Notes under the pieces: generated by a model
The model's input: the letters and a program-made list of their open reading frames with translations, nothing else
Database searches by the model: none
What the model was told of the DNA's origin: nothing
Source of the DNA: Heptranchias perlo
Taxonomy: Eukaryota
Direction of reading: 5' to 3'
Length of the DNA: 64,000 nucleotides
NCBI RefSeq assembly: GCF_035084215.1
Contig: NW_027139217.1
Coordinates: 124,001-188,000, forward strand
Part shown: piece after piece, positions 7,400 to 58,600 of the stretch
Position numbering within the stretch: position 1 is the first letter of the stretch
Layout of the letters: each line of letters begins with the position of its first letter
Made by a program: the position numbers and the translations under genes

Positions 7400-10300
7400 A
7401 CCCCCCCCGGGGAGACCCGGCCAATGCCCAAGTGATGATCGCCCTGGTGGAGCGACAACTCGCTGACGAGCTTTGGTCAGATCTCCGACGTTCCCCAGGC
7501 TGTGTAACCCTGGGCGACCCCCGAGTCCGAAGAACGGGATCGAATTTCCAGCCGATAATAAAATCAACCAGGGAGCGGAGGGAGGATAAAGCAAGAGGCC
7601 GGAGGGAGGAGGAGCCCAGAGCTTTAGGAGGGGACCAGACCCTATTCCCTCTGCTTCTCCACCCCCAGTGATGGAGCCAGGGCCTGGGACAGAGGGAAGA
7701 TCCTCCGGGCTGCCTCCCAGGAGAGCACGGGCTCAATTTCGAGGGACTCAATGTGGATCTTTCAGACTTCCAACAGGAGCAGATAAATGATGCAGTCCTC
7801 CAAATCATAAAACAAGAGGTAGTAGTGAGAAGTGGGCACCCCACTGAGGGTAAAACAAAAGGTGCGGGGCCTTATTATCCGGTAAAGAATGACCTTCTAT
7901 ACTGGGAGAGTGCGGGGCAGCAGCAGCAAGTTGACCAGTTGCTGGTGCCACGGACACAGAGGCAGATAGTCCTTGACTTGGCCACAAGCAACTATTCAGA
8001 GCTCACCTGGGGACAGAGCAAACTCGGGAGGGGCTGTTGAGGTGGGTCTTGTGGCCAGGGGTGGATGAAGTGATCCGGGGGTTCTGTCCCTCCTGTCCAC
8101 AGTGTCAGCTGTGTGGGCCCAGGCCTCACTATCACGCTCCATTAATCCCTCTCCCCGGAATTGAGGGGCCTTTCGAAAGGATCGGGATGGACCAGTGGGC
8201 CCGCTGGAGGGGTCAGCGCGAGGTCACCAATATATGTTGGGAGTTGTTGCCTGTTCCAGGCCCGATCCTGAGGCGATTCCACCGAGGATCACGGCCCCTA
8301 AAACCATAGCGGGCGGGTCAGTGAGAGCGTTCCCCGGGGTAGGGATCCCAAAGGACCAGGGACTCGCTCTGTGTCCACACTGATGAAGGGCCTCTGTCCC
8401 CTCCTCCATATTAAAAGTCTGAGGCCCTCCGTGGATCAACCCTCAAACCGAGGGCCGTGTGGAGAGGGTCAGTGGGACCCGCGAGTATGTTCAAAAAGGC
8501 CCGGCATAAAGATGGGTCAAATCGGGATCCTTCACTGCCCCGTCTCAGGCCTGCAGTCGGGGACGGGCCTCGGTCAGGGAGGGAGGGGCCTCGGTCAGGG
8601 AGGGAGGGGCCTCGGTCGGGGAGGGAGGGGCCTCGTTCGGGAGGGGCCTCGGTCGGGGAGGGAGGGGCCTCGGTCGGGGAGGGAGGGGCCTCGGGCGGGG
8701 AGGGAGGGGCCTCGGTCGGGGAGGGAGGGGCCTCGGTCGGGGAGGGAGGGGCCTCGGTCGGGGAGGGAGGGGCCTCGGTCGGGGAGGGAGGGGCCTCGGT
8801 CGGGGAGGGAGGGGCCTCGGGCGGGGAGGGAGGGGCCTCGGTCCTCCAATAATATTATTGAGCACAGAGTGAAGATGGGGCGCGGATTGAGGCGGTTCCC
8901 CCCATAGTGAGGGCTCATTTAGAGAGGGTGCAGGAAGAGCAGAGAGCCCAGTGTAAGAGAGGCTGCAGTCAGGAGGTTCCGACCAGGAGACCGAGTTACG
9001 GTCCTCGTTCCCACACCTGAAACAAGCTCTTTGCAGGGTGGCAGGGACTTTAGGAGGTTCTAGAGGCTGTGGGCCCAGTGAACTATAAGGTCAGGCAACC
9101 TCAGAGAAGGAAGCCTGACCAGAAAGACCATGTGCCCCTCCTGAAGCCATGGAGAGAGAGAGGCCCTCGCAGTGATGGAGAAAGCACTAGGGGGGCCCTG
9201 GCTCCAAGGTACAAAGCCCAGTTCACCTCTCCAGTGAGCTGCCTGAGGATCAGTGCAGGCAGGCTCAGCACCTGGGAGATGGAACCTGCAATGTATTCAC
9301 ATCTGGGCCTGGGAGGACGGGGGCCATCTGCTCTCACCTGGTGACACCACCAGGAGTGACAATAAAGGTCAGACCGGACCGAATCCCAGAAGCCAAACGG
9401 AGGGAGGTTCGCCAGGAGATTCCGAGGGTGTTGATCTTCGGGGTGATTGAAGAATCACGGTGAACGGAGCAGCCCCATTGTGTTGGTTCTGAATCCCGAT
9501 GGGAATTGGCGATTCTGAAATGACTTTCGGAAACTGAATGAGGATTGAAATCCGATGCTTTCCCGATGCCCCGGGGGGATGAGTTGATTGAGAGATTGGC
9601 GAAGGCCCCTTTGATCTTACCCCCTTCGATCTGACCAAGGGGTGCTGGCAGATCCCTTTAACAGAGGCTGCAAAAGGAAACCCGTGTTTCGGGGTTCCCG
9701 AGGGGCTCTCCCATTCACCGTCATGGCATTTGGATTCCATGGGGGCCCAGTCACCTTCCAAAGGCTCATGGACCAAGTGTTGGGACCCCCATACCCGGGG
9801 TGCAGCCTCATATCTGGATGATGCCATTATTTATAGTACAGACTGGTGATCCCATTTACCTGGAGTAGAGGCTGGATTACACAGCCTAAGAAAGATTGGG
9901 CTCACGGCAAACCCGGCCAAGGGCCACCTGGTGTTGTCGGAGGCCGACTACCGAGGGTGGGCTGTAGGAGGAGGGGTGGTGAAGTCTCAGGTAAATAGAG
10001 TTGAACCTATAAAAGCCTGGCCCCGACCGAGGAATAAGCAAGTCGGGACTTTCTTGGGCATCGTTGGTTACTCCTGCCGCTTTATTCCTGCCTTTCTCCC
10101 CGAGCCGCGCCCCCCACTTACCGAGCGGAGTAAAGCAGAGGCACTGAACCTTGTACGGTGGGACCCTGAGGCGGAGACTGCTTTCAGGGACCTGAACTAA
10201 ACACTGTGAATGATCTGAGCTCATGGTCCCAGACTTTAGTCCAAAATTTGTCTTGCAAACCGCTGCCTCCGAGGTGGGTTTGGGGGCCGTCCTCTCTCAA

Positions 10301-10760
10301 ATGGTGAAGGGGGAGGAAATCCTGTGCTCGACCTGAACAGAAAGCTGTTGCCCAGGGGGCAGCGACACGCTACGGCAGAGAAGGAGTGCCCACCAATTAA
10401 ATGGGCGGTAGAAACCCTTAAAACACCACCTGTTGGGGTACCAGCTTCTCCTCGTGACCAATCACGTGCCCCTCAAATGGATGTGGTCCAACAGTGAGAA
10501 AAATGCCCGGGTTACCCGGTGGATTTCGTCACTCCAGCCCGATTGTTTCGGGGTGGAACACCGGGCGGGAGTGGCACACGGTAACTCCGATGCCCTCTCC
10601 CGGGGGTATTGCCTCGCGGAGCGAGCAGCTGGAGCCGAGGGGTCTATGATGGGGGGGAGGATGTGTAAGGGAGGGCCCTGATCCCCAAATAAGGGTGTGG
10701 CCCTTTTAAGGAGACCTCCCCATTAAGAGGAAGGGTGTGGTCCTTTTAATGGGAACACCA
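7400..10760 (+). mobile_element. Degenerate Ty3/Gypsy LTR retrotransposon of the Gmr1-like type (integrase upstream of RT-RNase H)
   Basis: Integrase zinc finger (QLLVP..WPG..FCPSCPQCQ) and core start (PLP..PFERIGMD) at 7930-8500; GPVNYKV..HVPLLKPW at ~9070-9150; RT (DFRKLN, DLTKG.WQIPL, TFQRLMD, YLDD at 9811); RNase H (ASEVGLGAVLSQ, EKEC..IKWAVE, TNH.PL.W, DALSR) to ~10605; polypurine tract 10651-10661 followed by TGT. Confidence 0.85.
8566..8843. repeat. 21-bp G-rich minisatellite (GGGGCCTCGGTCGGGGAGGGA), about 13 copies, inside the Gypsy integrase
   Basis: Direct reading; source of the REGPRSG and PRPLPPR ORF artefacts. Confidence 0.92.
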
Positions 10761-15620: not shown

Positions 15621-15669
15621 ATGATTGGACTGATAGTTCTGGTCGTTCTGTGTGGAGGGGTCTCTGCAG
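15621..15669 (+). CDS. MHC class I exon 1, signal peptide MIGLIVLVVLCGGVSA
   Basis: ATG 15621, hydrophobic core, CAG/GTGAGT donor, phase 1 matches exon 2. Confidence 0.9.
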
Positions 15670-18600
15670 GTGAGTAATGGGGTCTGAGAGGGGCTCAGTG
15701 CCAGGCTGGGTATTGGGGCATTAACCCTCGGTCAGTGGGTAATGGGGTCTGAGAGGGGCTCAGTGCCAGGCTGGGTATTGGGGCATTAACCCTCGGTCAG
15801 TGGGTAATGGGGTCTGAGAGGGGCTCAGTGCCAGGCTGGGTATTGGGACATTAACCCTCGGTCAGTGGGTAATGGGGTCTGAGAGGGGCTCAGTGCCAGG
15901 CTGGGTATTGGGGCATTAACCCTCGGTCAGTGGGTAATGGGGTCTGAGAGGGGCTCAGTGCCAGGCTGGGTATTGGGGCATTAACCCTCGGTCAGTGGGT
16001 AATGGGGTCTGAGAGGGGCTCAGTGCCAGGCTGGGTATTGGGGCATTAACCCTCGGTCAGTGAGTAATGGGGTCTGAGAGGGGCTCAGTGCCAGGCTGGG
16101 TATTGGGGCATTAACCCTCGGTCAGTGGGTAATGGGGTCTGAGAGGGGCTCAGTGCCAGGCTGGGTATTGGGGCATTAACCCTCGGTCAGTGGGTAATGG
16201 GGTCTGAGAGGGGCTCAGTGCCAGGCTGGGTATTGGGGCATTAACCCTCGGTCAGTGGGTAATGGGGTCTGAGAGGGGCTCAGTGCCAGGCTGGGTATTG
16301 GGGCATTAACCCTCGGTCAGTGGGAAATGGGGTCTGAGAGGGGCTCAGTGCCAGGCTGGGTATTGGAGAGAGAGAGACCATGATTGAAGGGGTGCTGGAA
16401 ACAGTGTGATAGAGGGAGAGACCATGGGGTGGAGTGAGGAATGGGGGGACACGGACACACGCAGCACAACTCCATTTTCCCCCTTTGCTCCATATCCCTT
16501 GATGTCCTGACCCAACAAAAATCGATCAATCTCAGTTTTGAAAGCTCCAACGAACCCCCAGAATGCTCAGCCTTTTGGGGGAGAGAGTTCCAGATTCCCA
16601 CCACCCTTTGTGTGAAGAAATGCTTCCTGGTTTCACCCCTGAACGGCCTGGCTCGAATTTGAAGATTCCGTCCTCTTGTTCTTGTCTCCCCGACTAGACG
16701 AAGTAGTTTCTCCGTATCTACCCTATCAAATCCTTTTAACATTTTAAACACCCTCGATCAGATCACCCCTCAATCTTCTAAACTCGAGGGAATACAAGCC
16801 TCGTCTGTACAACCTGTCCTCGTAATTTAACCCTTTTAGCCCCGGGATCATTCTGGTGAATCTGGGCTGCACCCCCTCCAAGGCCAATCTATCCTTCCTG
16901 AGGTGCGGTGCCCAGAACTGAACACGGTCTCCAGATGTGGTCTGACCAGAGCTCTGCACAGCTGGAACATAACTTCCTCCCCTTTGTATTCCAGCCCCCG
17001 AGATAAAGGCCAACGTTCCATTAGCCTTTCCCAATCCTTTTTGTATCTCTCCACTGGCTTTTAATGATTTCTGTACTTGGACTCCCAAATCTCTCTGTTC
17101 CTCTCCAGTTCCTAGTTTCTCACCGTGTAGAAAATACTCTGATTTATCTTTCTTCGGTCTAAAGTCGATGACCTCACACTTTCCCACATTGAACTCCATC
17201 TGCCACAGTTTTGCCCACTCACTTAATCTGTCTCTGTCCCTTCACAACTCCCTGCTCCCGTCTACACTATTTCCTGTCCCTCCTAATTTAGTGTCGTCAG
17301 CAAACCCAGGCCCCTCTCCCTCAGTCTGTCAGGGGGTGTGTTACCCCAGGCCCCTCTCCCTCAGTCTGTCAGTGGGTGTGTTACCCCAGGCCCCTCTCCC
17401 TCAGTCTGTCAGGGGGTGTGTTACCCAAGGCCCCTCTCCCTCAGTCCCTGTCAGGGGGTGTGTTACCCCAGGCCCCTCTCCCTCAGTCTGTCAGTGGGTG
17501 TGTTACCCCAGGCCCCTCTCCCTCAGTCTGTCAGGGGGTGTGTTACCCCAGGCCCTTCTCCCTCAGTCCCTCAGTGGGTGTGTTACCCCAGGCCCATCTC
17601 CCTCAGTCTGTCAGTGGGTGTGTTACCCCAGGCCCCTCTCCCTCAGTCCCTCAGTGGGTGTGTTACCCCAGGCCCCTCTCCCTCAGTCTGTCAGTGGGTG
17701 TGTTACCCCAGGCCCCTCTCCCTCAGTCTGTCAGGGGGTGTGTTACCCCAGGCCCCTCTCGCTCAGTCTGTCAGTGGGTGTGTTACCCCAGGCCCCTCTC
17801 CCTCAGTCTGTCAGTGGGTGTGTTACCCCAGGCCCCTCTCCCTCAGTCTGTCAGTGGGTGTGTTACCCCAGGTACCACTCCCTCAGTCTGTCAGGGGGTG
17901 TGTTACCCCCGGCCCCTCTCCCTCAGTCTGTCAGGGGGTGTGATACCCCAGGCCCCTCTCCCTCAGCCTGTGTTGTGTTGATGTGGAGATGCCGGTGATG
18001 GACTGGGGTTGACAATTGTAAACAATTTTACAACACCAAGTTATAGTCCAGCAATTTTATTTTAAATTCACAAGCTTTCGGAGACTTCCTCCTTCCTCAG
18101 GTAAATGTTCAGGGACTCTGTGTTGTGTTGGGGATTATTTACAGGGAGTCTGTGTTATTTTGTTGGTTCATGCCCTGATCTCTCTCTCTCTCTCTCTCTG
18201 GGGTTGGTGTTTTGGGGTTGGTGTTTTGGGGTTCATGCCCTGATCTCTCTCTCTCTGGGGTTGGTGTTTTGGGGTTCATGCCCTGATCTCTCTCTCTCTC
18301 TGGGGTTGGTGTTTTGGGGTTCATGCCCTGATCTCTCTCTCTCTCTGGTGTTGGTGTTTTGGGGTTCATGCCCTGATCTCTCTCTGGGGTTGGTGTTTTG
18401 GGGTTCATGCCCTGATCTCTCTCTCTGGGGTTGGTGTTTTGGGGTTCATGCCCTGATCTCTCTCTCTCTGGGGTTGGTGTTTTGGGGTTCATGCCCTGAT
18501 CTCTCTCTCTCTGGGGTTGGTGTTTTGGGGTTCATGCCCTGATCTCTCTCTCTCTGGGGTTGGTGTTTTGGGGTTCATGCCCTGATCTCTCTCTCTCTGG

Positions 18601-21600
18601 GGTTGGTGTTTTGGGGTTCATGCCCTGATCTCTCTCTCTCTGGGGTTGGTGTTTTGGGGTTCATGCCCTGATCTCTCTCTCTCTCTGGGGTTGGTGTTTT
18701 GGGGTTCATGCCCTGATCTCTCTCTCTCTGGGGTTGGTGTTTTGGGGTTCATGCCCTGATCTCTCTCTCTGGGGTTGGTGTTTTGGGGTTCATGCCCTGA
18801 TCTCTCTCTCTCTGGGGTTGGTGTTTTGGGGTTCATGCCCTGATCTCTCTCTCTGGGGTTGGTGTTTTGGGGTTCATGCCCTGATCTCTCTCTCTCTCTG
18901 GGGTTGGTGTTTTGGGGTTCATGCCCTGATCTCTCTCTCTCTCTGGGGTTGGTGTTTTGGGGTTCATGCCCTGATCTCTCTCTCTCTGGGGTTGGTGTTT
19001 TGGGGTTCATGCCCTGATCTCTCTCTCTCTGTGTTTCAGGCTCTCACTCTCTCCGGTATTTTCTGACCGCAATGACCCCGATCCCTGGTCTGCCGCAGTT
19101 TGTTGCTGTCGGGTATGTGGACGAGGCCCAGTTTGTGATGTACGACAGCGAGCGGAGGGAGTTGATCCCACGGCGGTCCTGGATGGAGGAGAGGGAGGGG
19201 CCCGAGAACTGGGAGCGGAAGAAACAGCTGGTGCGAGGCGAGGAACAGTGGATGAAGGATTATATTCAGATCCTCCTGACCCGGACCAACCAGTCGGTCG
19301 GTGAGTTCACTCCCTCCCAACGCACTCGGGCTCTTCCTGCGGAGTCAGGGGGCGGAGAGCGGGGTCAGGGAGCGGGGAGCGGGGAGCGGGGTCAGGGAGC
19401 GGGGTCAGGGAGCGGGGAGCGGGGTCAGGGAGCGGGGAGCGGGGTCAGGGAGCGGGGAGCGGGGTCAGGGAGCGGGGAGCGGGGTCAGGGAGCGTGTCGG
19501 GGAGCAGGGTCGGGGCGGGGAGCGGGGTCAGGGGTCGTGGTCGGGGAGCGGGGTCGGGGCGGGGTCAGGGGTCAGGGAGCTGGGGCGGGGAGATGGGTCG
19601 GGGAGTGGGGTCGGGGTGGGGAGCGGCGTCAGGGGGCGGGGAGTGGGGTCAGGGGGCATGGAGTGGGGTCAGGGAGTGAGGTCAGGGGCAGGGAGCGGGG
19701 TCAGGGAGCGGGGTCAGGGGGCGGGTAGTGGGTCAGGGAGCGAGGTCAGGGTGCAGGGAGCGAGGTCAGGGGGCAGGGAGCGGGGTCAGGGGGCGGGGAG
19801 TGGGGTCAGGGGGCATGGAGCGGGGTCAGGGAGCGAGGTCAGGGGGCAGGGAGCGGGGTCAGGGGGCAGGGAGCGGGGTCAGGGGGCGGGGCCAGGGGTT
19901 GACATGCGATATTCTGACGGTCATGGACTCGGACCAACCAGTCGGGCGGTGAGTCCTCGGCCTCAAACCGCACTCGGGCTGATCCCGGGGTCAGGAGTGG
20001 GCAGGGCTGCTCCCCCTGGAAGTGAGGAAGTTCCACCCCCTCCCCCACTGTGTGACATAAGAACATAAGAAATAGGAGCAGGAGTAGGCCATCCGGCCCC
20101 TCGAGCCTGCTCCGCCATTCATAGAATCATAGAATTATAGAATCGTAGAAAATTTATGGCACAGAAGGAGGCCATTCGACCCATCGTGTCCGTGCCGGCC
20201 AAAAATGTGCCACCCAGCCTAATCCCACTTTCCAGCACTTGGTCCGTAGCCCTGTAGGTTATGGCACTTCAGGAGCACATCCAGGTACTTTTTAAATGAG
20301 TTGAGGGTTTCTGCCTCTCCCACCCTCTCAGGCGGTGAGTTCCAGACCCCCACCACCCTCTGGGTGAAAAAAATTCACCTCAGCTCCCCTCTAATCCTTC
20401 TACCAATTACTTTAAATCCATGCCCCCTGGGCATTGACCTCTCTGCTAAGGGAAATAGGTCCTTGCCCCTCATAATTTTATACACCGGGGAACATAGGAA
20501 CATAGGAACAGGAGTAGGCCATTCAGCCCCTCGAGCCTGCTCCACCATTTGATAAGATCATGGCTGATCTGTGATCTCACTCCATATACCTGCCTTTGGC
20601 CCATATCCCTTAATACCTTTGGTTGCCAAAAAGCTATCCATCTCAGATTTAAAATTAGCAATTGAGCTAGTATCAATTGCCGTTTGCAGAAGAGAGTTCC
20701 AAACTTCTACCACCCTTTGTGTGTAGAAATGTTTTCTAATCTCACTCCTGAAAGGTCTGGCTCTAATTTTTAGACTGTGCCCCCTACTCCTAGAATCCCC
20801 AACCAGCGGAAATAGTTTCTCTCTATCCACCCTATCTGTTCCTTTTAATATCTTATAAACTTCGATCAGATCACCCCTTAACCTTCGAAACTCTAGAGAA
20901 TACAACCCCAATTTGTGTAATCTCTCCTCGTAACTTAACCCTTGAAGTCCGGGTATCATTCTAGTAAACCTACGCTGCACTCCCTCCAAGGCCAATATGT
21001 CCTTCCGAAGGTGCGGTGCCCAGAACTGCTCACAGTACCTCAATTAAATCTCCCCTCAGCCTCCTTTGTTCAAAAGAAAACAACCCCAGCCCATCCAATC
21101 TTTCCTCAGAGCTAAAATTCTCCAGTCCTGGCAACATCCTCGCAAATCTCCTCTGTACCCTCTCTAGTGCAATCACATCTTTCCTGTAATGTGGTGACCA
21201 GAACTGTACACAGTACTCAAGCTGTGGCCTAACCAATGTTTTATACAGTTCCAGCATAACCTCCCTGCACTTATATTCGATGCCTTGGCCTAATAAAGGA
21301 AAGTATTCCATCTGCCTTCTTAACCACCTTATCTGTCCTACTACCTCGGGGATCTGTGGACATGCACTCCAAGGTCCCTCTGTTCCTCGACACCTCTCAG
21401 TATCCTCCCATTTATTGTGTGCTCCCTTGCCTTGTTTGCCCTCCCCAAAGGCACTACCTCACACTTCTCTGGATTGAATTCCATTTGTCACTTTTCTGCC
21501 CACCTGACCAGTCCATTGATATCTTCCTGCAGTCTACAGCTTTCCTCCTCACTAGCAACCACACGGCCAATTTTTGTATCATCTGCAAACTTCTTAATCA

Positions 21601-24600: not shown

Positions 24601-27600
24601 GTTGTGGGTGGGCGGCTTGCAGCAGTGGTAATGTGTGAGGGTGAGAGGAAGCTTCTGATGGGAAGAGTTGAGTACTGCTGGAAAGAGTTTGTTGGTATGT
24701 GGGTGATGGGGGTGTCGTGTGTGGGGCAGTTGGTTGGAGACACCACTTGACAGTTGACCTCACTCACCTTGACCACTCATGTCAGAGCATTGAACTTCTT
24801 CCTGCACTGCGTCCATGTTCGTGATGCTGTGGGCCTGGCATTGACTTCGTCCCCCGCTGCCTTGGGAGCATATATCTGGAGGGCCTCTTGACCCCCCGCG
24901 GATATAGGATGTCCCTCCTTCTGTCCACCTCTTGCACCAAGGCCTCTCGTGCATCATCAGAGAACCTTGGTGCACGCACTCTCACAGGCCTGGTACCAAC
25001 TCAGATCGGCAGATTGGTGAGGTCTGACCTGCAGATTGGAGGATGTGGGATTTAGTAGTGTGCAACCTTTATTCAATGTTTTAACATAACTCAACAGTTT
25101 GTAAACATAGGGAGGGGACCTGTATCTGTGTTTTACGTGTGCGATGTCTGATCTCCGTTCAGACTCTGTCCGAACCCGTATCTTATATTTTGCAAATATC
25201 AGAGTCCCTCAAACGTTGAGCAGCCCAGTTGTTGCTCATTAAAAATTCCACAGTTCCCATCATCATCGTGTTTCACGATATTGCAGCACAGATTCACTTC
25301 ACCATTGACTTCCTCCACTTCCTGCAGACACACTGCACCTTCCCTTTAAGAGGTGCAGGCTGCCTTTAAGTGGTGCGAGCCACTCGTGATATCTGGGCCC
25401 CTGCTGGTGAGCAGCCACTCACAGTGCAGGGAGTGCTGGCTGGACGCAGCAATCAGGTAAATCACCAGGCAGCACGAATGTTACGTTCTTCCCACATCTC
25501 ACCGACCGGGCACGGGTTCATCACGACCCGTGGAAGTGGTTTTCTCGGGCGGACCGAAAACACACCTCTTACTATAAGTTCAGGAACGATCGGGACACTC
25601 GCTGGGAGCACGGGGGGTCCTTTAAATACACAGATTGTGGTCCAGGGGGTCCTTTAAATATATAGATTGAGGTTCGGGGGTCCTTTAAATACACTGATCG
25701 GGGTCCGGGGGTCCTTTAAATACACTGATCGGGGTCCGGTGGGGGGGGTCCTTAAATACCCAGGCCGGGGTCCGGGGGTCCTTGAAATACACTGATCGGG
25801 GTCCGGGGGGTCCTTTAAATACACTGATCGGGGTCCGGGGGATCCTTTAAATACACTGATCGGGGTCCGGGGGGTTCCTTTAAATACACTGATCGGGGTC
25901 CGGGGGGTCCTTTAAATACACAGATCGGGGTCCGGGGATCCTTTAAATACACAGATCGGGGTCCGGGGGTCCTTTAAATACACAGATCGGGGTCCGGGGG
26001 TCCTTTAAATACACTGATCGGGGTCCGGGGATCCTTTAAATACACTGATCGGGGTCCGGGGGGGGGTCCTTAAATACCCAGGCCGGGGTCCAGGGGTCCT
26101 TTAAATACACTGATCGGGCTCCAGGGATCCTTAAAATACACTGATCGGGGTCCGGGGGATCCTTTAAATACACTGATCGGGGTCCGGGGGGTCCTTTAAA
26201 TACACAGATCGTGGTCCGGGGGTACTTTAAATACACTGATCGGGGTCCGGGGGGTCCTTTAAATACACAGATCGTGGTCCGGGGGTCCTTTAAATACACT
26301 GATCGGGGTCCGGGGGGTCCTTTAAATACACTGATCGGGGTCCGGGGGTCGTTTAAATACACTGATCGGGGTCCGGGGTCCTTTAAATACACTGATCGGG
26401 GTCCGGGGGTCCTTTAAATATACTGATCGGGGTCCGGGGGGTCCTTTAAATACACTGATCGGGGTCCGGGGGTCGTTTAAATACACTGATCGGGGTCCGG
26501 GGGTCCTTTAAATACACTGATCGGGGTCCGGGGGGTCCTTTAAATATACTGATCGTGGTCCGGGGGGTCCTTTAAATACACTGATCGGGGTCCGGGGGTC
26601 CTTTAAATACACTGATCGGGGTCCGGGGGGTCCTTTAAATACACTGATCGGGGTCCGGGGGTCCTTTAAATACACTGATCGGGGTCCCGGGGTCCTTTAA
26701 ATACACTGATCGGGGTCCGGGGGTCCTTTAAATACACTGATCGGGGTCCGGGGATCCTTTAAATACACTGATCGGGGTCCGGGGGGTCCTTTAAATACAC
26801 TGATCAGGGTCCGGGGGTCCTTTAAATACACTGGTTGGGGTCCGGGGGTCCTTTAAATACACTGATCGGGGTCCGGGGGTCCTTTAAATACACTGGTTGG
26901 GGTCCGGGGGGTCCTTTAAATACACTGATTGTCTCCGTAACCCATCTGCCCACTTCCCCCCTCCCCCCACCCCCGGCTTCCCAGGTGATTTCCGACTGTG
27001 AGCTGGGTGGTGATGGGATGGTGGACGGGGTCTCGGACTGGGTCTGACTGACCCCCTGTGTTTGATTGACAGGAATCCACATGATCCAGCAGATGACCGG
27101 CTGTGATCTGGGGGATGATGGGATCACCAGTGGGTTCTTTCAGTACGCCTGGGACGGGGAGGATTTCATCAACTTCGACAGGGATCAGATGGTGTGGGTA
27201 ACACCGGTACAGTGGGGAGAGATCACCAAGAACAAGTGGGACCAGGACACGCCCCGGAACCAAGGGGTGAAGGGATACCTGGAGGGGGAGTGCATCGAGT
27301 GGCTGAGGAAATACCTGGAGTACGGAGAGAGGGAACTGAGGGCCGGTGAGTGAGGGGGGAGTGAGAGTCGGTGAGTGAGGGGGGACTGAGAGTCGGTGAG
27401 TGAGGGGGGGAGTGAGAGTCAGTGAATGAGGGGGGACTGAGAGTCGGTGAGTGAAGGGGGGGACTGAGAGTCGGTGAGTGAGGGGGGAGTGAGAGTCGGT
27501 GAGTGAGGGGAGGAGTGAGAGTCGGTGAGTGAGGGGAGGAGTGAGAGTCGGGGAGTGAGGGGAGGAGTGAGAGTCAGTGAATGAGGGGGGACTGAGAGTT

Positions 27601-30600
27601 GGTGAGTGAAGGGGGGACTGAGAGTCGGTGGGTGAGGGGGGGAGTGAGAGTCAGTGAATGAGGGGGGACTGAGAGTCGGTGAGTGAAGGGGGGGACTGAG
27701 AGTCGGTGAGTGAGGGGGGAGTGAGAGTCGGTGAGTGAGGGGACGAGTGAGAGTCGGTGAGTGGGGGGGGGGAGTGAGAGTCGGTGAGTGAGGGGGGGAG
27801 TGAGAGTCGGTGAGTGATGGGACGAGTGAGAGTCGGTGAGTGAGGGGAGGAGTGAGAGTCGGTGAGTGAGGGGAGGAGTGAGAGTCGGGGAGTGAGGGGA
27901 GGAGTGAGAGTCGGTGAGTGAGGGGGGGAGTGAGAGTCGGTGAGTGAGGGGAGGAGTGAGAGTCGGGGAGTGAGGGGAGGAGTGAGAGTCGGTGAGTGAG
28001 GGGGGGGAGTGAGAGTCGGGGAGTGAGGGAGGGGACAGAGTCGGTGAGTGAGGGGGGAGTGAGAGTCGGTGAGTGATGGGACGAGTGAGAGTCGGGGAGT
28101 GAAGGGAGGAGTGAGAGTCGGTGAGTGAAGGGGGGGACTGAGAGTCGGTGAGTGATGGGACGAGTGAGAGTCGGTGAGTGAGGGGAGGAGTGAGAGTCGG
28201 TGAGTGAGGGGAGGAGTGAGAGTCGGGGAGTGAGGGGAGGAGTGAGAGTCGGTGAGTGAGGGGGGGAGTGAGTCGGTGAGTGAGGGGAGGAGTGAGAGTC
28301 GGGGAGTGAGGGGAGGAGTGAGAGTCGGTGAGTGAGGGGGGGGAGTGAGAGTCGGGGAGTGAGGGGGGAGTGAGAGTCGGTGAGTGATGGGACGAGTGAG
28401 AGTCGGTGAGTGAGGGGAGGAGTGAGAGTCGGTGAGTGAGGGGAGGAGTGAGAGTCGGGGAGTGAGGGGAGGAGTGAGAGTCGGTGAGTGAGGGGGGGAG
28501 TGAGAGTCGGTGAGTGAGGGGAGGAGTGAGAGTCGGGGAGTGAGGGGAGGAGTGAGAGTCGGTGAGTGAGGGGGGGAGTGAGAGTCGGGGAGTGAGGGAG
28601 GGGACTGAGAGTCGGTGAGTGAGGGGGGAGTGAGAGTCGGTGAGTGAGGGGGGGAATGGGGTCTAATCCCCAGTTTAAAGGGGTTTGTCCCGTTCCCTGG
28701 GGTCTAATCCCCAGTTTAAAGGGGTTTGTCCCGTTCCCTGGGGTCTAATCCCCAGTTTAAAGGGGTTTGTCCCGTTCCCTGGGGTCTAATCCCCAGTTTA
28801 AAGGGGTTTGCACCGTTCCCTGTCTCACACTGACTCGGCTCTGATCTGTTTTACTCTCAGTTACTCCCCAAGTGTTTCTTTCTGTGGACAAGGCCTCAGA
28901 CACTAAACCGGCCCAACTCTCCTGCCTGGTCACGGGGTTTTACCCTCGAGATATCGAACTCACCCTCCTGAGAAATGGACGGCCGATCTCAGACACTGAT
29001 TCCACTGGCATCCTGCCCAACCACGATGGCACCTACCAGATCAAGAGATGGGTTGAGATCGGGCCCGAGGACGGAGCCACCTACTCCTGTCAGGTGGATC
29101 ACAGCAGCAAAGCAGGAGTGGAGACCCGAGACTGGGGTAAGAGGATCAGTGAGTGCAGGGGGAGAGTCTGAGGCTGAGGATTAAAGATGTTTCTATTGCC
29201 TCTCCTCATTCTTCCTTCCAAAATACATCACTTCACACTTCTCTGTGTTAAATTTCATCTGCCATGTGTCTGCCCATTTCACCAGTCTGTCTGTGTCCTC
29301 CTGAACTCTGTTACTATCCTCCACATTGTTTACTACATTTCCGAGTTTCATGTCAGCTGCAAACTTTGAAATTATACCCTCTATACCTGTGACGGGGAAA
29401 TTTTATTCAGAAATACAAGAGATTTCCAAACCTGCCTGTCTATAATGAGCAGCACCATATATCTGGGTTACACTGAGTTATTGACTGGCTGGGATCTGTG
29501 TGTCAGGTGAAGGAGGCCGTTAGTCCATTGAACTCCTCAACCTTCCATAGAAAGGCCGTATCACCCATCACTGTACTTCCACCAGCCGACTCTGAGACTG
29601 TGCTGGGGATTCATCACTTGTGGAGGGGACTAGTAATGACTTTGGACTGATGGGTAATTCCAATATCTGCAGACAAGCAACAACTTGTATTTATAAAGTG
29701 CCTTTAATGGAGAGAAACGTCCCAAAGTGCTTCCCAGGAGTGGAATCAAAGCCACGCTGAACTTTCTAACCTCCAACTTGCTCTGATCAGACTGCCCATC
29801 ACATCGCAGACTCGAATCGAACTCAGTCTCAGGCACAGCTTTGGTCTCATTACTTCCTAATCAGCAGCGACTGTCGTTATTCATTTCTCTCCTCCTCCTT
29901 ATTCCCCCCACAGATGGGACGTTCCGAGTGACTCCGGGATCTTCAGAGGGACCGAATCTGGGTTTAATTGTTGGAATTGTTCTTGCTGCCGTCGTCCTGA
30001 TTGCTCTCGTCATTGGTGCCGTTGTCTGGAAGAAGAGAGGTAGGAAATGAGGACAGGATCTGTCCCACACGGGGATGAGCAGGTTCAAATGTTACAGCAC
30101 AAATGGCAGAACATTAGAGACTTCCCATCGACATGTGGGAAACTCCGACACAGTCCAGTGATGGACAGGGACCCGTACAGGGAGTGAAGGGACCGGGGCC
30201 CCGTACGGGGAGTGAAGGGACCGGGGCCCCGTACGGGGAGTGAAGGGACCGGGGCCCCGTACGGGGAGTGAAGGGACCGGGGCCCCGTACGGGGAGTGAA
30301 GGGACCGGGGCCCCGTACGGGGAGTGAAGGGACCGGGGCCCCGTACGGGGAGTGAAGGGACCGGGGCCCCGTACGGGGAGTGAAGGGACCGGGGCCCCGT
30401 ACGGGGAGTGAAGGGACCGGGGCCCCGTACGGGGAGTGAAGGGACCGGGGCCCCGTACGGGGAGTGAAGGGACCGGGGCCCCGTACGGGGAGTGAAGGGA
30501 CTGGGCCTGATTGGGGAGTGAAGGGACCGGGTGAAGAGAGGATATTGTCCGATGCCTGTTTCTCAGTGAGCCTCCTGTGAGTGCCCACAGGGAAATCTGG

Positions 30601-30736
30601 TCATTGCCCCTGTTTCTGGAGTAAGTTTGTGTCGGCGAGGGGCTGTGCTGATCGAGGAGCTGTTTGTAACTGAAGTTCCGTCTGTTTCTGTCTCTTGTAG
30701 GAGGAGAGAAAAAATCTGGTTACAGCCCAGCAAATC
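15621..30736 (+). CDS. MHC class I alpha chain, cartilaginous-fish UAA-like; 6 exons visible, 3' end outside window: join(15621..15669,19040..19300,27073..27345,28861..29136,29914..30039,30701..30736)
   Basis: All GT-AG phase-1 introns; 1021 nt spliced open frame; GSHSLRYF start, NQS glycosylation site at 86, C101-C164, Ig C1 alpha3, TM, GYSPA tail motif. Confidence 0.95.
15670..16365. repeat. 65-bp minisatellite starting exactly at the intron 1 donor, about 10.7 copies
   Basis: Units start at 15670, 15735, 15800 and so on; GTGAGT in copies 1 and 7 (16060), GTGGG in the others. Confidence 0.95.
16465..17304 (-). mobile_element. CR1 ORF2 3' fragment in intron 1
   Basis: FADD remnant, MEFNVGKCEV, QFWAPHLRKD, FFTQRVVGIWNSLP, with frameshifts. 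Confidence 0.9.
17305..17968. repeat. 40-bp minisatellite (CCCAGGCCCCTCTCCCTCAGTCTGTCAGTGGGTGTGTTAC), about 16 copies
   Basis: Direct reading. Confidence 0.95.
17979..18107 (-). mobile_element. Penelope-like element terminal fragment
   Basis: GATGTGGAGATGCCGG..GGACTGGGG..ACAACACCAAG..AGTCCA..AGCTTTCGGAG..CCTTCCTCAGG layout plus the hammerhead motif typical of Penelope terminal repeats. Confidence 0.6.
18066..18106 (-). ncRNA. Minimal type I hammerhead ribozyme-like motif
   Basis: Minus strand AUUUAC-CUGAGGA-A-GGAG(GAAGU)CUCC-GAAA-GC-UU-GUGAAU: stem I 6 bp, stem II 4 bp, palindromic AGCU in place of stem III. Confidence 0.6.
18165..19030. repeat. ~41-bp minisatellite GGGGTTGGTGTTTTGGGGTTCATGCCCTGAT(CT)n, about 21 copies, ending at the exon 2 acceptor
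   Basis: The last unit runs directly into GTGTTTCAG/exon 2. Confidence 0.95.
19040..19300 (+). CDS. MHC class I exon 2, alpha1 domain
   Basis: GSHSLRYFLTAMTPIPGLPQFVAVGYVDEAQFVMYDSERRELIPRRSWMEEREGPENWERKKQLVRGEEQWMKDYIQILLTRTNQSV; 261 nt. Confidence 0.97.
19345..19893. repeat. G-rich degenerate repeat (GGGAGCGGGGTCA-type)
   Basis: Direct reading; dense GGGG runs. Confidence 0.9.
19908..20008 (+). pseudogene. Relic 3' end of a second alpha1 exon plus the start of its intron 2
   Basis: GAT ATT CTG ACG GTC ATG (G) ACT CGG ACC AAC CAG TCG GGC G/GTGAGT, then CGCACTCGGGCT as found after the real exon 2. Confidence 0.85.
20054..22705 (-). mobile_element. Three nested CR1 insertions: A (20054-20120 and 22431-22705) contains B (20121-20487 and 21037-22430), which contains C (20489-21036)
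   Basis: Three separate CR1 tails (ACATAAGA, ATCATAGA, ACATAGGA types); the interrupted halves join into continuous CR1 sequence; RT ORF 21598-22284. Confidence 0.82.
22727..24075. repeat. C-rich ~21-bp minisatellite GTGTCTCTCTATT(C)6-11, about 60 copies
   Basis: Direct reading. Confidence 0.96.
24078..24330 (+). mobile_element. CR1 3' end fragment
   Basis: EVKKHF.TQRV.EVW..NFKSEIDRFL, 3'UTR ending CCTGTTCCTTTGTTCC. Confidence 0.85.
24380..24990 (-). mobile_element. Relic Myb/SANT-like gene of a PIF/Harbinger DNA transposon (two exons)
   Basis: RAPRFSDDAREALVQEVDRRRDILYP..EVNA..RTWTQCRKKFNAL..VVK/GTGAGT, then TTGCAG/EKVVHNRRQ; frameshift and stop present; element ends not identified. Confidence 0.7.
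25611..26929. repeat. ~31-bp minisatellite GGGGTCCGGGGGTCCTTTAAATACACTGATC, about 40 copies
   Basis: Direct reading; ends ~140 nt upstream of exon 3. Confidence 0.95.
27073..27345 (+). CDS. MHC class I exon 3, alpha2 domain
   Basis: GIHMIQQMTGCD..YAWDGEDFI..ITKNKW..YLEGECIEWLRKYLEYG; 273 nt; ACAG acceptor and GTGAGT donor. Confidence 0.97.
27346..28654. repeat. ~25-bp minisatellite GTGAGTGAGGGGGGAGTGAGAGTCG starting at the intron 3 donor, about 50 copies
   Basis: Most units recreate CG/GTGAGT. Confidence 0.95.
28658..28821. repeat. 41-bp repeat, 4 copies, just upstream of the exon 4 acceptor
   Basis: GGGGTCTAATCCCCAGTTTAAAGGGGTTTGTCCCGTTCCCT. Confidence 0.95.
28861..29136 (+). CDS. MHC class I exon 4, alpha3 Ig C1 domain
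   Basis: VTPQVF..LSCLVTGFYPRDI..ILPNHDGTYQ..YSCQVDHSS..W; 276 nt. Confidence 0.97.
29205..29390 (-). mobile_element. Small CR1 RT fragment in intron 4
   Basis: Minus strand ISKFAAD..WADTWQMKFNTEKCEVM. Confidence 0.75.
29675..29745 (-). mobile_element. Probable L2/SINE 3' tail fragment
   Basis: CAACAACTTGTATTTATAAAGTGCCTTT..AAACGTCCCAAAGTGCTT is the reverse complement of a typical L2-type terminus; recognised from memory. Confidence 0.45.
29914..30039 (+). CDS. MHC class I exon 5, connecting peptide and transmembrane segment
   Basis: DGTFRVTPGSSEGPNLGLIVGIVLAAVVLIALVIGAVVWKKR; pyrimidine tract with CAG acceptor, GTAGGA donor. Confidence 0.93.
30172..30530. repeat. 28-bp palindrome-rich minisatellite CCGTACGGGGAGTGAAGGGACCGGGGCC, about 12 copies
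   Basis: Direct reading. Confidence 0.95.
30701..30736 (+). CDS. MHC class I exon 6, cytoplasmic GGEKKSGYSPAN
   Basis: TCTCTTGTAG acceptor, GTAAGT donor, 36 nt, phase 1, YxxA motif as in class I tails. Confidence 0.88.
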
Positions 30737-35124: not shown

Positions 35125-38100
35125 CATCTCCCTCCAAAACAGGTATACCGTTTTGGATACTGTTGGCGGAGATGGCTTACCAGGGGAAGGTGGCAGTGGC
35201 CAGGTTCATGGCACCGTGGCTGGCTCTGCTGCACAGGAGGGCAGGAAAAAGAGTGGCAGAGCTATAGTGATAGGGGACTCGATTGTAAGGGGAATAGACA
35301 GGCGTTTCTGCGGACGCAACCGAGACTCTAGGATGGTATGTTGCCTCCCTGGTGCAAGGGTCAAGGATGTCTCGGAGCGGCTGCAGGACATTCTGGAGGG
35401 GGAGGGTGAACAGCCAGTTGTCGTGGTGCATATAGGCACCAACGATATAGGTAAAAAACAGGATGAGGTCCTACAAGCTGAATTTAGGGAGTTAGGAGTT
35501 AAACTAAAGAGTAGGACCTCAAAGGTAGTAATCTCAGGATTGCTACCAGTGCCACGGGCAAGTCAGAGTAGGAATGACAGGATAGCTAAGATGAATACGT
35601 GGCTTGAGAGATGGTGCAAGAGGGAGGGATTCAAATTCCTGGGCCATTGGAACCGGTTCTGGGGGAGGTGGGACCAGTACAAATTGGACGGTCTGCATCT
35701 GGGCAGGACTGGAACCAATGTCCTAGGGGGAGTGTTTGCCAGTGCTGTTGGGGAGGGTTTAAACTAATGTGGCAGGGGGATGGGAACCGATGCAGGAAGT
35801 CAGTGGGAAATAAAGTGGTGACAGAAACAAAAGGCAGTAAGGGAGAGTGTACAGAACATGACCGGACAGATGGTCTGAGAAAGCAGGGCAAAGACCAAGG
35901 GAAGACTAGATTAAACTGCATTTATTTCAATGCAAGAAGTCTGATGGGCAAGGCAGATGAACTCAGGGCATGGATGGGTACATGGGACTGGGATGTTATA
36001 GCTATTACTGAAACATGGCTAAGGGAGGGGCAGGACTGGCAGCTCAATGTTCCAGGGTACAGATGCTATAGGAAAGATAGAGCAGGAGGTAAGAGAGGAG
36101 GGGGAGTTGCGTTCTTGATTAGGGAGAACATCACGGCAGTAGTGAGAGGGGATATATCCGAGGGTTCGCCCACTGAGTCCATATGGGTAGAACTGAAAAA
36201 TAAGAAGGGAGAGATCACTTTGATAGGATTGTACTACAGACCCCCAAATAGTCAACGGGAAATTGAGGAGCAAATATGTAAGGAGATTACAGACAGCTGC
36301 AAGAAAAATAGGGTGGTAATAGTAGGGGACTTTAACTTTCCCAACATTGACTGGGACAGCCATAGCATTAGGGGCTTGAATGGAGAGAAATTTGTTGAGT
36401 GTATTCAGGAGGAATTTCTCATTCAGTATGTGGATGGCCCGACTAGAGAGGGGGCAAAACTTGACCTCCTCTTGGGAAATAAGGAAGGGCAGGTGACAGA
36501 AGTGTTAGTGAGGGATCATTTTGGGACCAGTGATCATAATTCCATTAGTTTTAAGATAGCTATGGAGAATGATAAGACCTATCATTCTCCATAGTTAAAA
36601 TTCTAAATTGGGGAAAGTTAAAATTCTAAATTGGGGAAAGGCCAATTTTGATGGTATTAGACAGGAACTTTCAGAAGTTGATTGGGAGAGTCTGTTGGCA
36701 GGCAAAGGGACGTCTGGTAAGTGGGAGGCTTTCAAAAGTGTGTTAACCAGGGTTCAGTGTAAGCACATTCCTTATAAAGTGAAGGGCAAGGCTGGTAGAA
36801 GTAGGGAACCTTGGATGACTCGGGAGATTGAGGCACTAGTCAAAAATAAGAAGGAGGCATATGACATGCATAGGCAGCTGGGATCAAGTGGATCCCTTGA
36901 AGAGTATAGAGATTGCCGGAGTAGAGTTAAGAGAGAAATCAGGAGGGCAAAAAGGGGATATGAGATTGCTTTGGCAGATCAGGCAAAGGTGAATCCAAAG
37001 AGCTTCTACAAATACATAAAGGGCAAAAGGGTAACAAGGGAGAGAGTAGGGCCTCTTAAGGATCAACAAGGTCATCTATGTGCGGAACCACAAGAGATGG
37101 GTGAGATCCTGAATGAATATTTCACATCGGTATTTACGGTTGAGAAAGGCATGGATGTTAGGGAACTTGGGGAAATAAATAGTGATGTCTTGAGGAGTGT
37201 ACATATTACAGAGAGGGAGGTGCTGGAAGTCTTAACGCGCATCAAGGTAGATAAATCTCCGGGACCTGATGAAATGTATCCCAGGACGTTATGGGAGGTT
37301 AGGGAGGAAATTGCGGGTCCCCTAGCAGAGATATTTGAATCATCCACCGCTACAGGTGAGGTGCCTGAAGATTGGAGGGTAGCAAATGTTGTGCCTTTGT
37401 TTAAGAAGGGCGGCAGGGAAAAGCCTGGGAACTACAGACCAGTGAGCCTGACATCTGTAGTGGGTAAGTTGTTAGAGGGTATTCTGAGGGACAGAATCTA
37501 CAGGCATTTGGAGAGGCAGGGACTAATTAGGAACAGTCAGCATGGTTTTGTGAGAGGAAAATCATGTCTCACGAATTTGATTGAGTTTTTTGAAGGGGTA
37601 ACCAAGAAGATAGATGAGGGCTGTGCAGTAGACGTGGTCTACATGGACTTCAGCAAAGCATTTGACAAGGTACCGCATGGTAGGTTGTTACATAAGGTTA
37701 AATCTCATGGGATCCAAGGTGAGGTAGCCAATTGGATACAAAATTGGCTTGACGACAGAAGACAGAGGGTGGTTGTCGAGGGTTGTTTTTCAAACTGGAT
37801 GCCTGTGTCCAGCGGTGTGCCTCAGGGATCGGTGCTGGGTCCGCTGTTATTTGTTATTTATATTAATGATTTGGATGAGAATTTAGGAGGCATGGTTAGT
37901 AAGTTTGCAGATGACACCAAGATTGGTGGCATTGTGGACAGTGAAGAAGGTTATCTAGGATTGCAACGGGATCTTGATAAATTGGGCCAGTGGGCCGATG
38001 AATGGCAGATGGAGTTTAATTTAGATAAATGTGAGGTGATGCATTTTGGTAGATCGAATCGGGCCAGGACCTACTCCGTTAATGGTAGGGCGTTGGGGAG

Positions 38101-38835
38101 AGTTATAGAACAAAGAGATCTCGGAGTACAGATTCATAGCTCCTTGAAAGTGGAGTCACAGGTGGATAGGGTGGTGAAGAAGGCATTCAGCATGCTTGGT
38201 TTCATTGGTCAGAACATTGAATGCAGGAGTTGGGATGTCTTGTTGAAGTTGTACAGGGCATTGGTGAGGCCACACTTGGAGTACTGTGTACAGTTCTGGT
38301 CACCCTATTATAGAAAGGATATTATTAAACTAGAAAGAGTGCAGAAAAGATTTACTAGGATGCTACCGGGACTTGATGGTTTGACTTACAGGGAGAGGTT
38401 AGACAGACTGGGACTTTATTCCCTGGAGAGTAGGAGGTTAAGGGGTGATCTTATAGAAGTCTATAAAATAATGAGGGGCATAGATAAGGTCGACAGTCAA
38501 AATCTTTTCCCAAAGGTAGGGGAGTCTATAACGAGGGGACATAGATTTAAGGTGAGAGGGGAGAGATACAAAAGGATCCAGAGGGGCAATTTTTTCACTC
38601 AAAGGGTGGTGAGTGTCTGGAACGAGCTGCCAGAGGCAGTAGTAGAGGCGGGTACAATTTTGTCTTTTAAAAAGCATTTGGACAGTTACATGGGGAAGAT
38701 GGGTATCGAGGGATATGGGCCAAGTGCAGGCAATTGGGACTAGCTTAGTGGTATAAACTGGGCGACATGGACATGTTGGGCCGAAGGGCCTGTTTCCATG
38801 TTGTAACTTCTATGATTCTATGATTCTATGATTCT
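35125..38835 (+). mobile_element. 5'-truncated young CR1 LINE, copy 1 (ORF1 esterase part to 35767, ORF2 ~35758-38743 broken at 36575-36615, (TTCTATGA)3 tail)
   Basis: GDS/GTND/DGLH esterase; EN motifs in 35611-36594; uninterrupted RT frame 36608-38743; octamer tail 38808-38835. Confidence 0.97.
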
Positions 38836-55680: not shown

Positions 55681-58600
55681 CATCTCCCTCCAAAACAGGT
55701 ATACCGTTTTGGATACTGTTGGCGGAGATGGCTTACCAGGGGAAGGTGGCAGTGGCCAGGTTCATGGCACCGTGGCTGGCTCTGCTGCACAGGAGGGCAG
55801 GAAAAAGAGTGGCAGAGCTATAGTGATAGGGGACTCGATTGTAAGGGGAATAGACAGGCGTTTCTGCGGACGCAACCGAGACTCTAGGATGGTATGTTGC
55901 CTCCCTGGTGCAAGGGTCAAGGATGTCTCGGAGCGGCTGCAGGACATTCTGGAGGGGGAGGGTGAACAGCCAGTTGTCGTGGTGCATATAGGCACCAACG
56001 ATATAGGTAAAAAACAGGATGAGGTCCTACAAGCTGAATTTAGGGAGTTAGGAGTTAAACTAAAGAGTAGGACCTCAAAGGTAGTAATCTCAGGATTGCT
56101 ACCAGTGCCACGGGCAAGTCAGAGTAGGAATGACAGGATAGCTAAGATGAATACGTGGCTTGAGAGATGGTGCAAGAGGGAGGGATTCAAATTCCTGGGC
56201 CATTGGAACCGGTTCTGGGGGAGGTGGGACCAGTACAAATTGGACGGTCTGCATCTGGGCAGGACTGGAACCAATGTCCTAGGGGGAGTGTTTGCCAGTG
56301 CTGTTGGGGAGGGTTTAAACTAATGTGGCAGGGGGATGGGAACCGATGCAGGAAGTCAGTGGGAAATAAAGTGGTGACAGAAACAAAAGGCAGTAAGGGA
56401 GAGTGTACAGAACATGACCGGACAGATGGTCTGAGAAAGCAGGGCAAAGACCAAGGGAAGACTAGATTAAACTGCATTTATTTCAATGCAAGAAGTCTGA
56501 TGGGCAAGGCAGATGAACTCAGGGCATGGATGGGTACATGGGACTGGGATGTTATAGCTATTACTGAAACATGGCTAAGGGAGGGGCAGGACTGGCAGCT
56601 CAATGTTCCAGGGTACAGATGCTATAGGAAAGATAGAGCAGGAGGTAAGAGAGGAGGGGGAGTTGCGTTCTTGATTAGGGAGAACATCACGGCAGTAGTG
56701 AGAGGGGATATATCCGAGGGTTCGCCCACTGAGTCCATATGGGTAGAACTGAAAAATAAGAAGGGAGAGATCACTTTGATAGGATTGTACTACAGACCCC
56801 CAAATAGTCAACGGGAAATTGAGGAGCAAATATGTAAGGAGATTACAGACAGCTGCAAGAAAAATAGGGTGGTAATAGTAGGGGACTTTAACTTTCCCAA
56901 CATTGACTGGGACAGCCATAGCATTAGGGGCTTGAATGGAGAGAAATTTGTTGAGTGTATTCAGGAGGAATTTCTCATTCAGTATGTGGATGGCCCGACT
57001 AGAGAGGGGGCAAAACTTGACCTCCTCTTGGGAAATAAGGAAGGGCAGGTGACAGAAGTGTTAGTGAGGGATCATTTTGGGACCAGTGATCATAATTCCA
57101 TTAGTTTTAAGATAGCTATGGAGAATGATAAGACCTATCATTCTCCATAGTTAAAATTCTAAATTGGGGAAAGTTAAAATTCTAAATTGGGGAAAGGCCA
57201 ATTTTGATGGTATTAGACAGGAACTTTCAGAAGTTGATTGGGAGAGTCTGTTGGCAGGCAAAGGGACGTCTGGTAAGTGGGAGGCTTTCAAAAGTGTGTT
57301 AACCAGGGTTCAGTGTAAGCACATTCCTTATAAAGTGAAGGGCAAGGCTGGTAGAAGTAGGGAACCTTGGATGACTCGGGAGATTGAGGCACTAGTCAAA
57401 AATAAGAAGGAGGCATATGACATGCATAGGCAGCTGGGATCAAGTGGATCCCTTGAAGAGTATAGAGATTGCCGGAGTAGAGTTAAGAGAGAAATCAGGA
57501 GGGCAAAAAGGGGATATGAGATTGCTTTGGCAGATCAGGCAAAGGTGAATCCAAAGAGCTTCTACAAATACATAAAGGGCAAAAGGGTAACAAGGGAGAG
57601 AGTAGGGCCTCTTAAGGATCAACAAGGTCATCTATGTGCGGAACCACAAGAGATGGGTGAGATCCTGAATGAATATTTCACATCGGTATTTACGGTTGAG
57701 AAAGGCATGGATGTTAGGGAACTTGGGGAAATAAATAGTGATGTCTTGAGGAGTGTACATATTACAGAGAGGGAGGTGCTGGAAGTCTTAACGCGCATCA
57801 AGGTAGATAAATCTCCGGGACCTGATGAAATGTATCCCAGGACGTTATGGGAGGTTAGGGAGGAAATTGCGGGTCCCCTAGCAGAGATATTTGAATCATC
57901 CACCGCTACAGGTGAGGTGCCTGAAGATTGGAGGGTAGCAAATGTTGTGCCTTTGTTTAAGAAGGGCGGCAGGGAAAAGCCTGGGAACTACAGACCAGTG
58001 AGCCTGACATCTGTAGTGGGTAAGTTGTTAGAGGGTATTCTGAGGGACAGAATCTACAGGCATTTGGAGAGGCAGGGACTAATTAGGAACAGTCAGCATG
58101 GTTTTGTGAGAGGAAAATCATGTCTCACGAATTTGATTGAGTTTTTTGAAGGGGTAACCAAGAAGATAGATGAGGGCTGTGCAGTAGACGTGGTCTACAT
58201 GGACTTCAGCAAAGCATTTGACAAGGTACCGCATGGTAGGTTGTTACATAAGGTTAAATCTCATGGGATCCAAGGTGAGGTAGCCAATTGGATACAAAAT
58301 TGGCTTGACGACAGAAGACAGAGGGTGGTTGTCGAGGGTTGTTTTTCAAACTGGATGCCTGTGTCCAGCGGTGTGCCTCAGGGATCGGTGCTGGGTCCGC
58401 TGTTATTTGTTATTTATATTAATGATTTGGATGAGAATTTAGGAGGCATGGTTAGTAAGTTTGCAGATGACACCAAGATTGGTGGCATTGTGGACAGTGA
58501 AGAAGGTTATCTAGGATTGCAACGGGATCTTGATAAATTGGGCCAGTGGGCCGATGAATGGCAGATGGAGTTTAATTTAGATAAATGTGAGGTGATGCAT

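Follow-up and report, generated by a model that had tools for sequence, protein, structure and literature searches.

A second exon 2 junction in an MHC class I gene of the shark Heptranchias perlo: a candidate scar of alpha1 exon replacement

A class I gene with a second exon 2 junction

The stretch of Heptranchias perlo DNA analysed here, 64,000 nt in all and called the window below, carries one MHC class I gene on its plus strand, with leader, alpha1, alpha2, Ig-C1 alpha3, transmembrane and cytoplasmic exons and with GT-AG borders present; a tblastn search of the 64,000 nt returned no second class I gene. The gene and the features of its second intron are as follows, P0014 and P0002 being H. 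perlo class I proteins.

15621..15669, plus strand: exon 1 (leader), 100% by tblastn to P0014 residues 1-17
19040..19300, plus strand: live exon 2 (alpha1), 261 nt, Pfam MHC_I E 4e-23, divergent and UBA-leaning
19301..19338, plus strand: live donor with the conserved first part of intron 2, containing CGCACTCGGGCT, defined from the sequence and aligning to the relic
19339..19897, plus strand: degenerate G-rich tandem array, TRF periods 13/20/33
19908..19948, plus strand: relic 3' end of exon 2, 41 nt, classical UAA-like, with a +1 frameshift
19949..19995, plus strand: donor of the relic with the first part of its intron 2, closing with a single array-core copy at 19986
27073..27345, plus strand: exon 3 (alpha2), Pfam MHC_I E 1.2e-25
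28861..29136, plus strand: exon 4 (alpha3), C1-set, 92/92 identical to P0002 and P0014
29914..30039, plus strand: exon 5 (connecting peptide, transmembrane), 100% by tblastn to P0014 287-329
30701..30736, plus strand: exon 6 (cytoplasmic), 100% by tblastn to P0014 329-340

P0014 has an identical leader, alpha3, transmembrane exon and exon 6; its last cytoplasmic exon was not found within the window. Domain by domain, the gene matches P0014 at 57/87 in alpha1, 73/90 in alpha2 and 92/92 in alpha3, and its alpha2 is equally close to P0002 (73/90) and nearly so to a third H. perlo protein, P0020 (71/90). The top single-domain matches of alpha1 are shark proteins, P0002 standing at 83%. Two oddities of the protein set deserve mention. 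The C-terminus of P0002 (KKRGRK, then a stop) equals a read-through of the exon 5 donor at window positions 30030-30051 and, on that likeness, may be an annotation artefact; the partial class I proteins P0022 and P0024 are labelled Vibrio parahaemolyticus, a label that likely reflects contamination in the source database.

Within intron 2, which is 7,772 nt long, we confirmed the second exon 2 3' end with an intact donor that the earlier note had described. The relic donor (GCG/GTGAGT, at 19948/19949) lies 648 nt beyond the live one (TCG/GTGAGT, at 19300/19301), and CGCACTCGGGCT stands downstream of both. The relic reads DILTVM at 19908-19925 and TRTNQSG at 19927-19947, one extra base between the two making the +1 frameshift. 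From 19927 to 19980 it matches the live junction at 19279-19332 in 45 of 54 nt, ungapped, when the next-best 54-mer anywhere in the window, on either strand, reaches 31/54; a self-BLASTn of the window gives 83.6% over 55 nt (E 7e-9). Upstream of the extra base, where the relic has DILTVM and the live exon YIQILL, the match is 12/18 nt. A 16-nt core occurs exactly twice in the window, and 3 of 100 shuffles gave two matches at up to three mismatches. The claim that relic and live exon differ at groove positions also held, the differences falling at live positions 75, 77, 78, 79, 80 and 87; positions 75, 78 and 79 align to mouse class I residues 77, 80 and 81, which line the F pocket. Directly before the relic, the stretch GTT GAC AT at 19898-19914 holds a V-D as in some classical alleles. 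This codon pair is offset by 7 nt from the DILTVM frame; the relic could extend back to 19898, or the junction may hold a small templated insertion here.

The two junctions are separated, as the earlier note had stated, by a G-rich repeat (19339-19897), which ends 10 nt upstream of the relic. It holds 16 copies of CGG[AG]GTCAGG in 19340-19874, and its G4Hunter-type mean of 1.94, with 90% of 25-nt windows at 1.5 or above, is the highest among the seven arrays scored (the next reaches 1.76). From its sequence the array is predicted to form G-quadruplexes.

We consider it very improbable that the relic is an assembly or sequencing artefact. G-runs and tandem repeats abound in this region, and the two runs that support the relic, X1 and X5, both come from sample S1 and are possibly the window's own source, not an independent animal. 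Contigs of both nevertheless contain the relic plus 23 nt or more from the end of the array, and they agree with the window at every position of 19875-20058 (X1) and 19875-20056 (X5); the extra base is carried unchanged in each, which disfavours a base-calling error. The relic and the live junction are also set apart by 9 of 54 nt and an indel.

Equally improbable, in our judgement, is a working alternative donor that lengthens the transcript or switches it off. The donor consensus is intact, and 648 nt makes 216 codons in the same phase as the live donor; the 216-codon read-through, however, contains three stop codons, no pyrimidine tract precedes the relic as a cassette exon would need, and an intact GT after modest divergence requires no selection. 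Because use of the relic donor would add these stops, the relic is likely inert, as far as its sequence tells. Among the runs guessed to be RNA, X5 covers intronic sequence, and X6-X8 contain 0.24-0.25 of the query words, exon 2 making up 0.24 of the query.

Other repeats crowd the window. A minisatellite at 15670-16366 is built from a 65-bp unit that starts at the exon 1 donor, in 10.7 copies, and one at 27337-28655 from a 26-bp unit with a variant exon 3 end and donor in 51 copies, 35 of them with GGTGAGTGA; together these donor-built arrays after exons 1 and 3 amount to dozens of possible decoy donors. Some 26 kb of a 22-bp CT-rich satellite occupies 30942-63998, interrupted twice by a block of about 3.7 kb (about 35125-38840 and 55681-59399, a period of 20,556 nt), which may be either a real duplication or an assembly artefact. 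Upstream of the gene, at about 7400-10600, lies what looks by eye like decayed coding sequence of a retroelement; a 21-bp G-rich array interrupts it at 8560-8843.

Ancestry of the relic

The peptide evidence on the relic amounts to 13 residues in total, which we scored with 13-column profiles of alpha1 ends from cartilaginous fish, 26 of them UBA-like and 33 not. Membership of the UBA group follows the alpha1 tree and is anchored on P0064, by eye the Gici-UBA labelled in the supplement of PMC10751288. As non-UBA against UBA-like, the relic scores +8.3 bits (+6.7 without the frameshift residue), the live exon -2.8 and P0002 -15.5; on leaving one row out at a time, all 33 non-UBA rows came out positive and 24 of the 26 UBA-like rows came out negative. 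The rows nearest to the relic peptide are two Triakis UAA alleles (11/13), followed by P0020 (9/13), with the live exon at 7/13. Fitting the non-UBA profile better over its last 13 residues, the relic appears to be a classical-type alpha1 end.

For the DNA comparison, 4 of 18 runs, all as contigs, were compared with 19875-20058 at 80% likeness, X9 being covered to about 55%; gaps in contig coverage prove nothing here. Nine contigs lie at these positions, two of them the relic itself and seven other class I junctions. Over spans set by each contig's own best match, a choice that favours the contigs, five of these seven are closer to the relic than the live exon is, and two tie. The five comprise three contigs of sample S1 (35/36 twice, where the live exon has 30/36, and 30/32 against 28/32) and two of organism C (36/39 against 33/39, 32/35 against 30/35); the ties are a contig of organism C at 43/51 and one of organism B at 41/49. 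On the fixed span 19930-19964, four contigs differ from the relic by at most 1, 1, 3 and 3 mismatches and the live exon by 5. At least five of six differences side with the other locus, which gives a binomial 7/64 = 0.11 by hand and is weak alone.

The likeness is divided along the relic. Over 19949-19965 it matches another locus at 16-17 of 17 positions and the live copy at 12 of 17. Beyond 19965 the contigs that reached 35/36 no longer match, where the live copy continues at 13/15, and over the longer span 19930-19980 no contig beats the live exon. One block common to the relic and other loci, next to another common to the relic and the live gene, is the pattern that a separate, paralog-level junction would give. 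The earlier claim that the relic is no fresh local copy was thus borne out over 19930-19964 only, by the four contigs with 1-3 mismatches set against 5 for the live exon.

Contigs over 19875-20058 contained no intact exon 2 before the relic's downstream intron. Positions 19981-20056 are covered by one contig in each of X1 and X5, the junction of array and relic being unbroken in both. A scan of metagenome contigs for the junction pattern returned no match, and a protein search whose query continued from the exon into the intron gave two matches, neither informative. We had also considered the live intron start as a distinct ancient type common to organisms B and C, and do not claim it, since by eye the loose ends fit relic and live copy about equally.

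These comparisons bear on the most substantial alternative to a foreign origin, an old tandem duplication in which the gene copied the donor region of its exon 2 locally, at a time when the exon end was still classical. The array would later have expanded between the copies, and selection and short conversions would have remodelled the live exon, leaving the relic as a same-locus fossil without any wholesale exon swap. The gene offers precedents, with donor-derived arrays of 10 motif copies after exon 1 and 35 after exon 3. Relic and live copy agree in the relative position of CGCACTCGGGCT and of the array core, and no second gene with the relic's downstream intron appears among the contigs. 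Those other arrays, however, are short head-to-tail units matching at 89-99%, whereas here a single copy stands at a 648-nt period with 54 alignable nt, and a dead copy would be expected to drift, yet this one agrees with another locus at 16-17/17 where the live copy has 12/17 (19949-19965). A recent duplication has the further difficulty that the relic is not closest to the adjacent live exon over 19930-19964. The live alpha1 speaks on both sides: its profile, described below, is intermediate, which favours the duplication, and it groups with UBA of other shark orders, which counts against it. We regard the duplication as credible, though unlikely on the whole.

Lineages of the live gene's domains

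Domain trees were built from the window gene and 63 of 130 proteins, namely 60 cartilaginous-fish and 3 sturgeon or paddlefish rows; fused, partial and redundant entries and other vertebrates were left out. The alpha3 tree and the 64-row alpha2 tree are quick trees. AU tests used a 29-row subset, with groups named after the first trees had been seen.

In alpha1, the window gene groups with P0002 as sister of the UBA clade (100/96 on 64 rows, 99/96 on 29), P0014 and P0020 form a clade of their own apart from them (100/98), and a single clade of all four is rejected (p-AU 0.004). In alpha2 the same four form one clade (95/88 with 29 rows; SH 93 in the quick tree), itself sister to UBA (92/82), and a clade of the window gene, P0002 and UBA has a p-AU of 0.355 and so is not rejected. 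In alpha3, the window gene, P0002 and P0014 fall with Squalus Q8HWH7, Pristiophorus and rows that resemble UAA-2, and with no UBA rows (SH 94, quick tree), P0020 lying outside; the UAA-2 likeness was judged by eye against a sequence labelled in the PMC10751288 supplement. We had also considered this alpha3 clade as UDA, which was ruled out on finding that the labelled alignment places UDA in a different lineage. The expected incongruence between domain trees was accordingly found, with alpha1 beside UBA, alpha2 with the H. perlo trio and alpha3 identical to that of a classical-looking paralog.

Residue profiles temper the position of alpha1. When profiled against 26 UBA and 31 non-UBA rows, none of them from H. 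perlo, the live alpha1 falls at +12 bits, in the gap between the two groups (UBA members 61 to 133, non-UBA rows -152 to -77), and it has three of nine UBA-diagnostic residues (L42, K61, L64). It does not show the UBA residue profile despite clustering with Gici-UBA kin, and we dropped an initial assignment as UBA on these two figures; by its residues it reads as UBA-leaning, not as a UBA member. Alpha2 scores -16.6 bits on the UBA profile, and alpha3, at -138 bits and in a separate clade, is not of UBA type. Among the eight classical anchors Y7, Y59, R84, T143, K146, W147, Y159 and Y171 (PMC4364491), the live gene keeps seven, by eye on the alignment; N replaces Y59, where the gene departs from classical UAA. 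The other H. perlo alpha1 domains score +44 (P0002), -51 (P0014) and -63 bits (P0020) on the UBA profile, so that the four H. perlo-type alpha1 look shifted towards UBA relative to the remaining non-UBA rows, as might follow from homogenisation between lineages or from a position near the origin of UBA. Judged from these sequences, H. perlo class I genes read as domain mosaics.

The domain trees also give some room to a reading in which exons 2 and 3 are original partners and the relic is the newcomer, some 100 nt of the junction of a different class I gene, copied in during break repair at the G-rich array. The incongruence would then come from separate homogenisation of alpha2 and alpha3, and within-species homogenisation of alpha3 is described for teleosts in the part of PMC4364491 that we cite. 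This account would cover the foreign look of the relic, the absent parent of its downstream intron and the alpha2 p-AU of 0.355. It requires two junctions, however, the second of which was not located, and a chance landing in the same orientation directly behind the homologous junction, and we judge it distinctly unlikely.

Origin and meaning of the relic

We favour, at about even odds (roughly 0.5), the reading that the relic is what remains of another class I gene's exon 2 junction after two class I genes fused out of register. The divergent, UBA-leaning exon 2, the donor behind it and the G-rich array would come from an upstream gene A. In the simplest single event, a deletion or an unequal exchange between tandem paralogs would have joined a break within that array or at its end to a point in a downstream gene B, some 40-50 nt before the end of a classical-type exon 2; what follows the relic, both the remaining intron 2 and the later exons, would be gene B's. 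With the first donor intact the hybrid gene would still work, and the relic, spliced out from that donor, could decay without cost, as its +1 frameshift suggests. An in-register crossover or conversion should leave no relic, hence the need for an out-of-register join. The parent gene of the downstream half would have been consumed by the event, which fits the absence of an intact gene B from the contigs; the same absence fits the rival readings too.

What is observed in favour of this fusion is the relic, its classical-type peptide, a 35-nt span over which other junctions match it more closely, the incongruence of the trees and the stops in the read-through; from these we infer the two-parent origin, the direction of the event, the breakpoint and any role of G-quadruplexes. 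Against the fusion, the live alpha1 is only partly UBA-like, and donor regions are duplicated locally at exons 1 and 3. Given the alpha2 p-AU of 0.355 and the sister position of H. perlo alpha2 to UBA, alpha1 and alpha2 could be original partners, so alpha2 does not fix the breakpoint; the relic itself points to intron 2 as the crossover site. The array is likely the breakpoint region, and its top G4 score and nearness to the relic are consistent with a break there without demonstrating one. The exon replacement of the earlier note, in which unequal crossover or conversion put a different alpha1 in front of the remnant of the previous one, therefore stands in part: the relic's nearness to other junctions and the incongruent trees bear it out, its direction and breakpoint are inferential, and the suggested G-quadruplex involvement corresponds to a score.

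A wider version of the fusion holds that sharks of the sixgill and sevengill order make new class I genes by putting UBA-type alpha1 domains onto classical bodies through breaks at a G-quadruplex array directly behind exon 2, with the scar kept at this locus. We offer it tentatively, as a rather doubtful extension.

Shuffling of exon 2 through intron 2 is known in salmonids (UBA) and zebrafish (UAA/UEA/UIA), and trout intron 2 exceeds 10 kb (PMC1971071, PMC6523485, PMC4364491, in the parts cited). The H. perlo locus resembles that system in having a long intron 2 and divergent alpha1 domains on shared downstream domains within a species. It differs in that the host is a shark, that the exchange likely ran between nonclassical-leaning and classical loci rather than between alleles, that the alpha2 of the window is only about 80% shared and not identical, and that a physical remnant of the other exon remains, none being mentioned for teleosts in the cited parts of these papers. 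We think it likely, by analogy, that the relic locus works like teleost alpha1 shuffling and differs by its scar and by probably crossing the line between classical and nonclassical genes.

Among shark genes, UBA is multicopy and MHC-linked, in a cluster flanked by c4 and rxrb (PMC10751288), and is reported to derive from UAA (PMC12562908). Classical UAA is marked by strong allelic polymorphism, broad expression and linkage to TAP and PSMB genes. The live alpha1 is like nonclassical UBA (Gici-UBA, AAC60347) in being sister to that clade and in sharing L42, K61 and L64, and unlike it in having three of the nine diagnostic residues, a profile far below that of members and an alpha3 that is not of UBA type. 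To classical UAA the locus is tied by the relic peptide, at 11/13 to Triakis UAA, and by an alpha3 placed among UAA-2-like rows; unlike UAA and UAA-2, the live protein has no Y59, and its alpha1 falls in neither group. With the minisatellites after exons 1 and 3 the relic shares the placing of an exon end and donor copy downstream in the same orientation; unlike their many short, near-identical units, it is one diverged copy 648 nt away.

Our literature search, which had the primary shark class Ib papers and most subscription journals outside its reach, returned no report of such an exon-swap scar in sharks and does not establish its absence from print; pairing Heptranchias perlo with the MHC returned only a mitochondrial-genome paper.

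The finding concerns a single, likely inert remnant at a single locus. If the fusion is true, exon swapping known from bony fish extends to sharks, and the boundary between classical and nonclassical class I genes of sharks is leaky at the level of single domains, with consequences for the naming of lineages. A scar with a mappable junction provides a place to test how and when such exchange happens. Should the wider version, with UBA-type alpha1 domains grafted onto classical bodies, also hold, shuffling of alpha1 through intron 2 would be a route common to jawed vertebrates and not a teleost speciality, and half-UBA genes would show the UBA family arising from, or still trading with, UAA.
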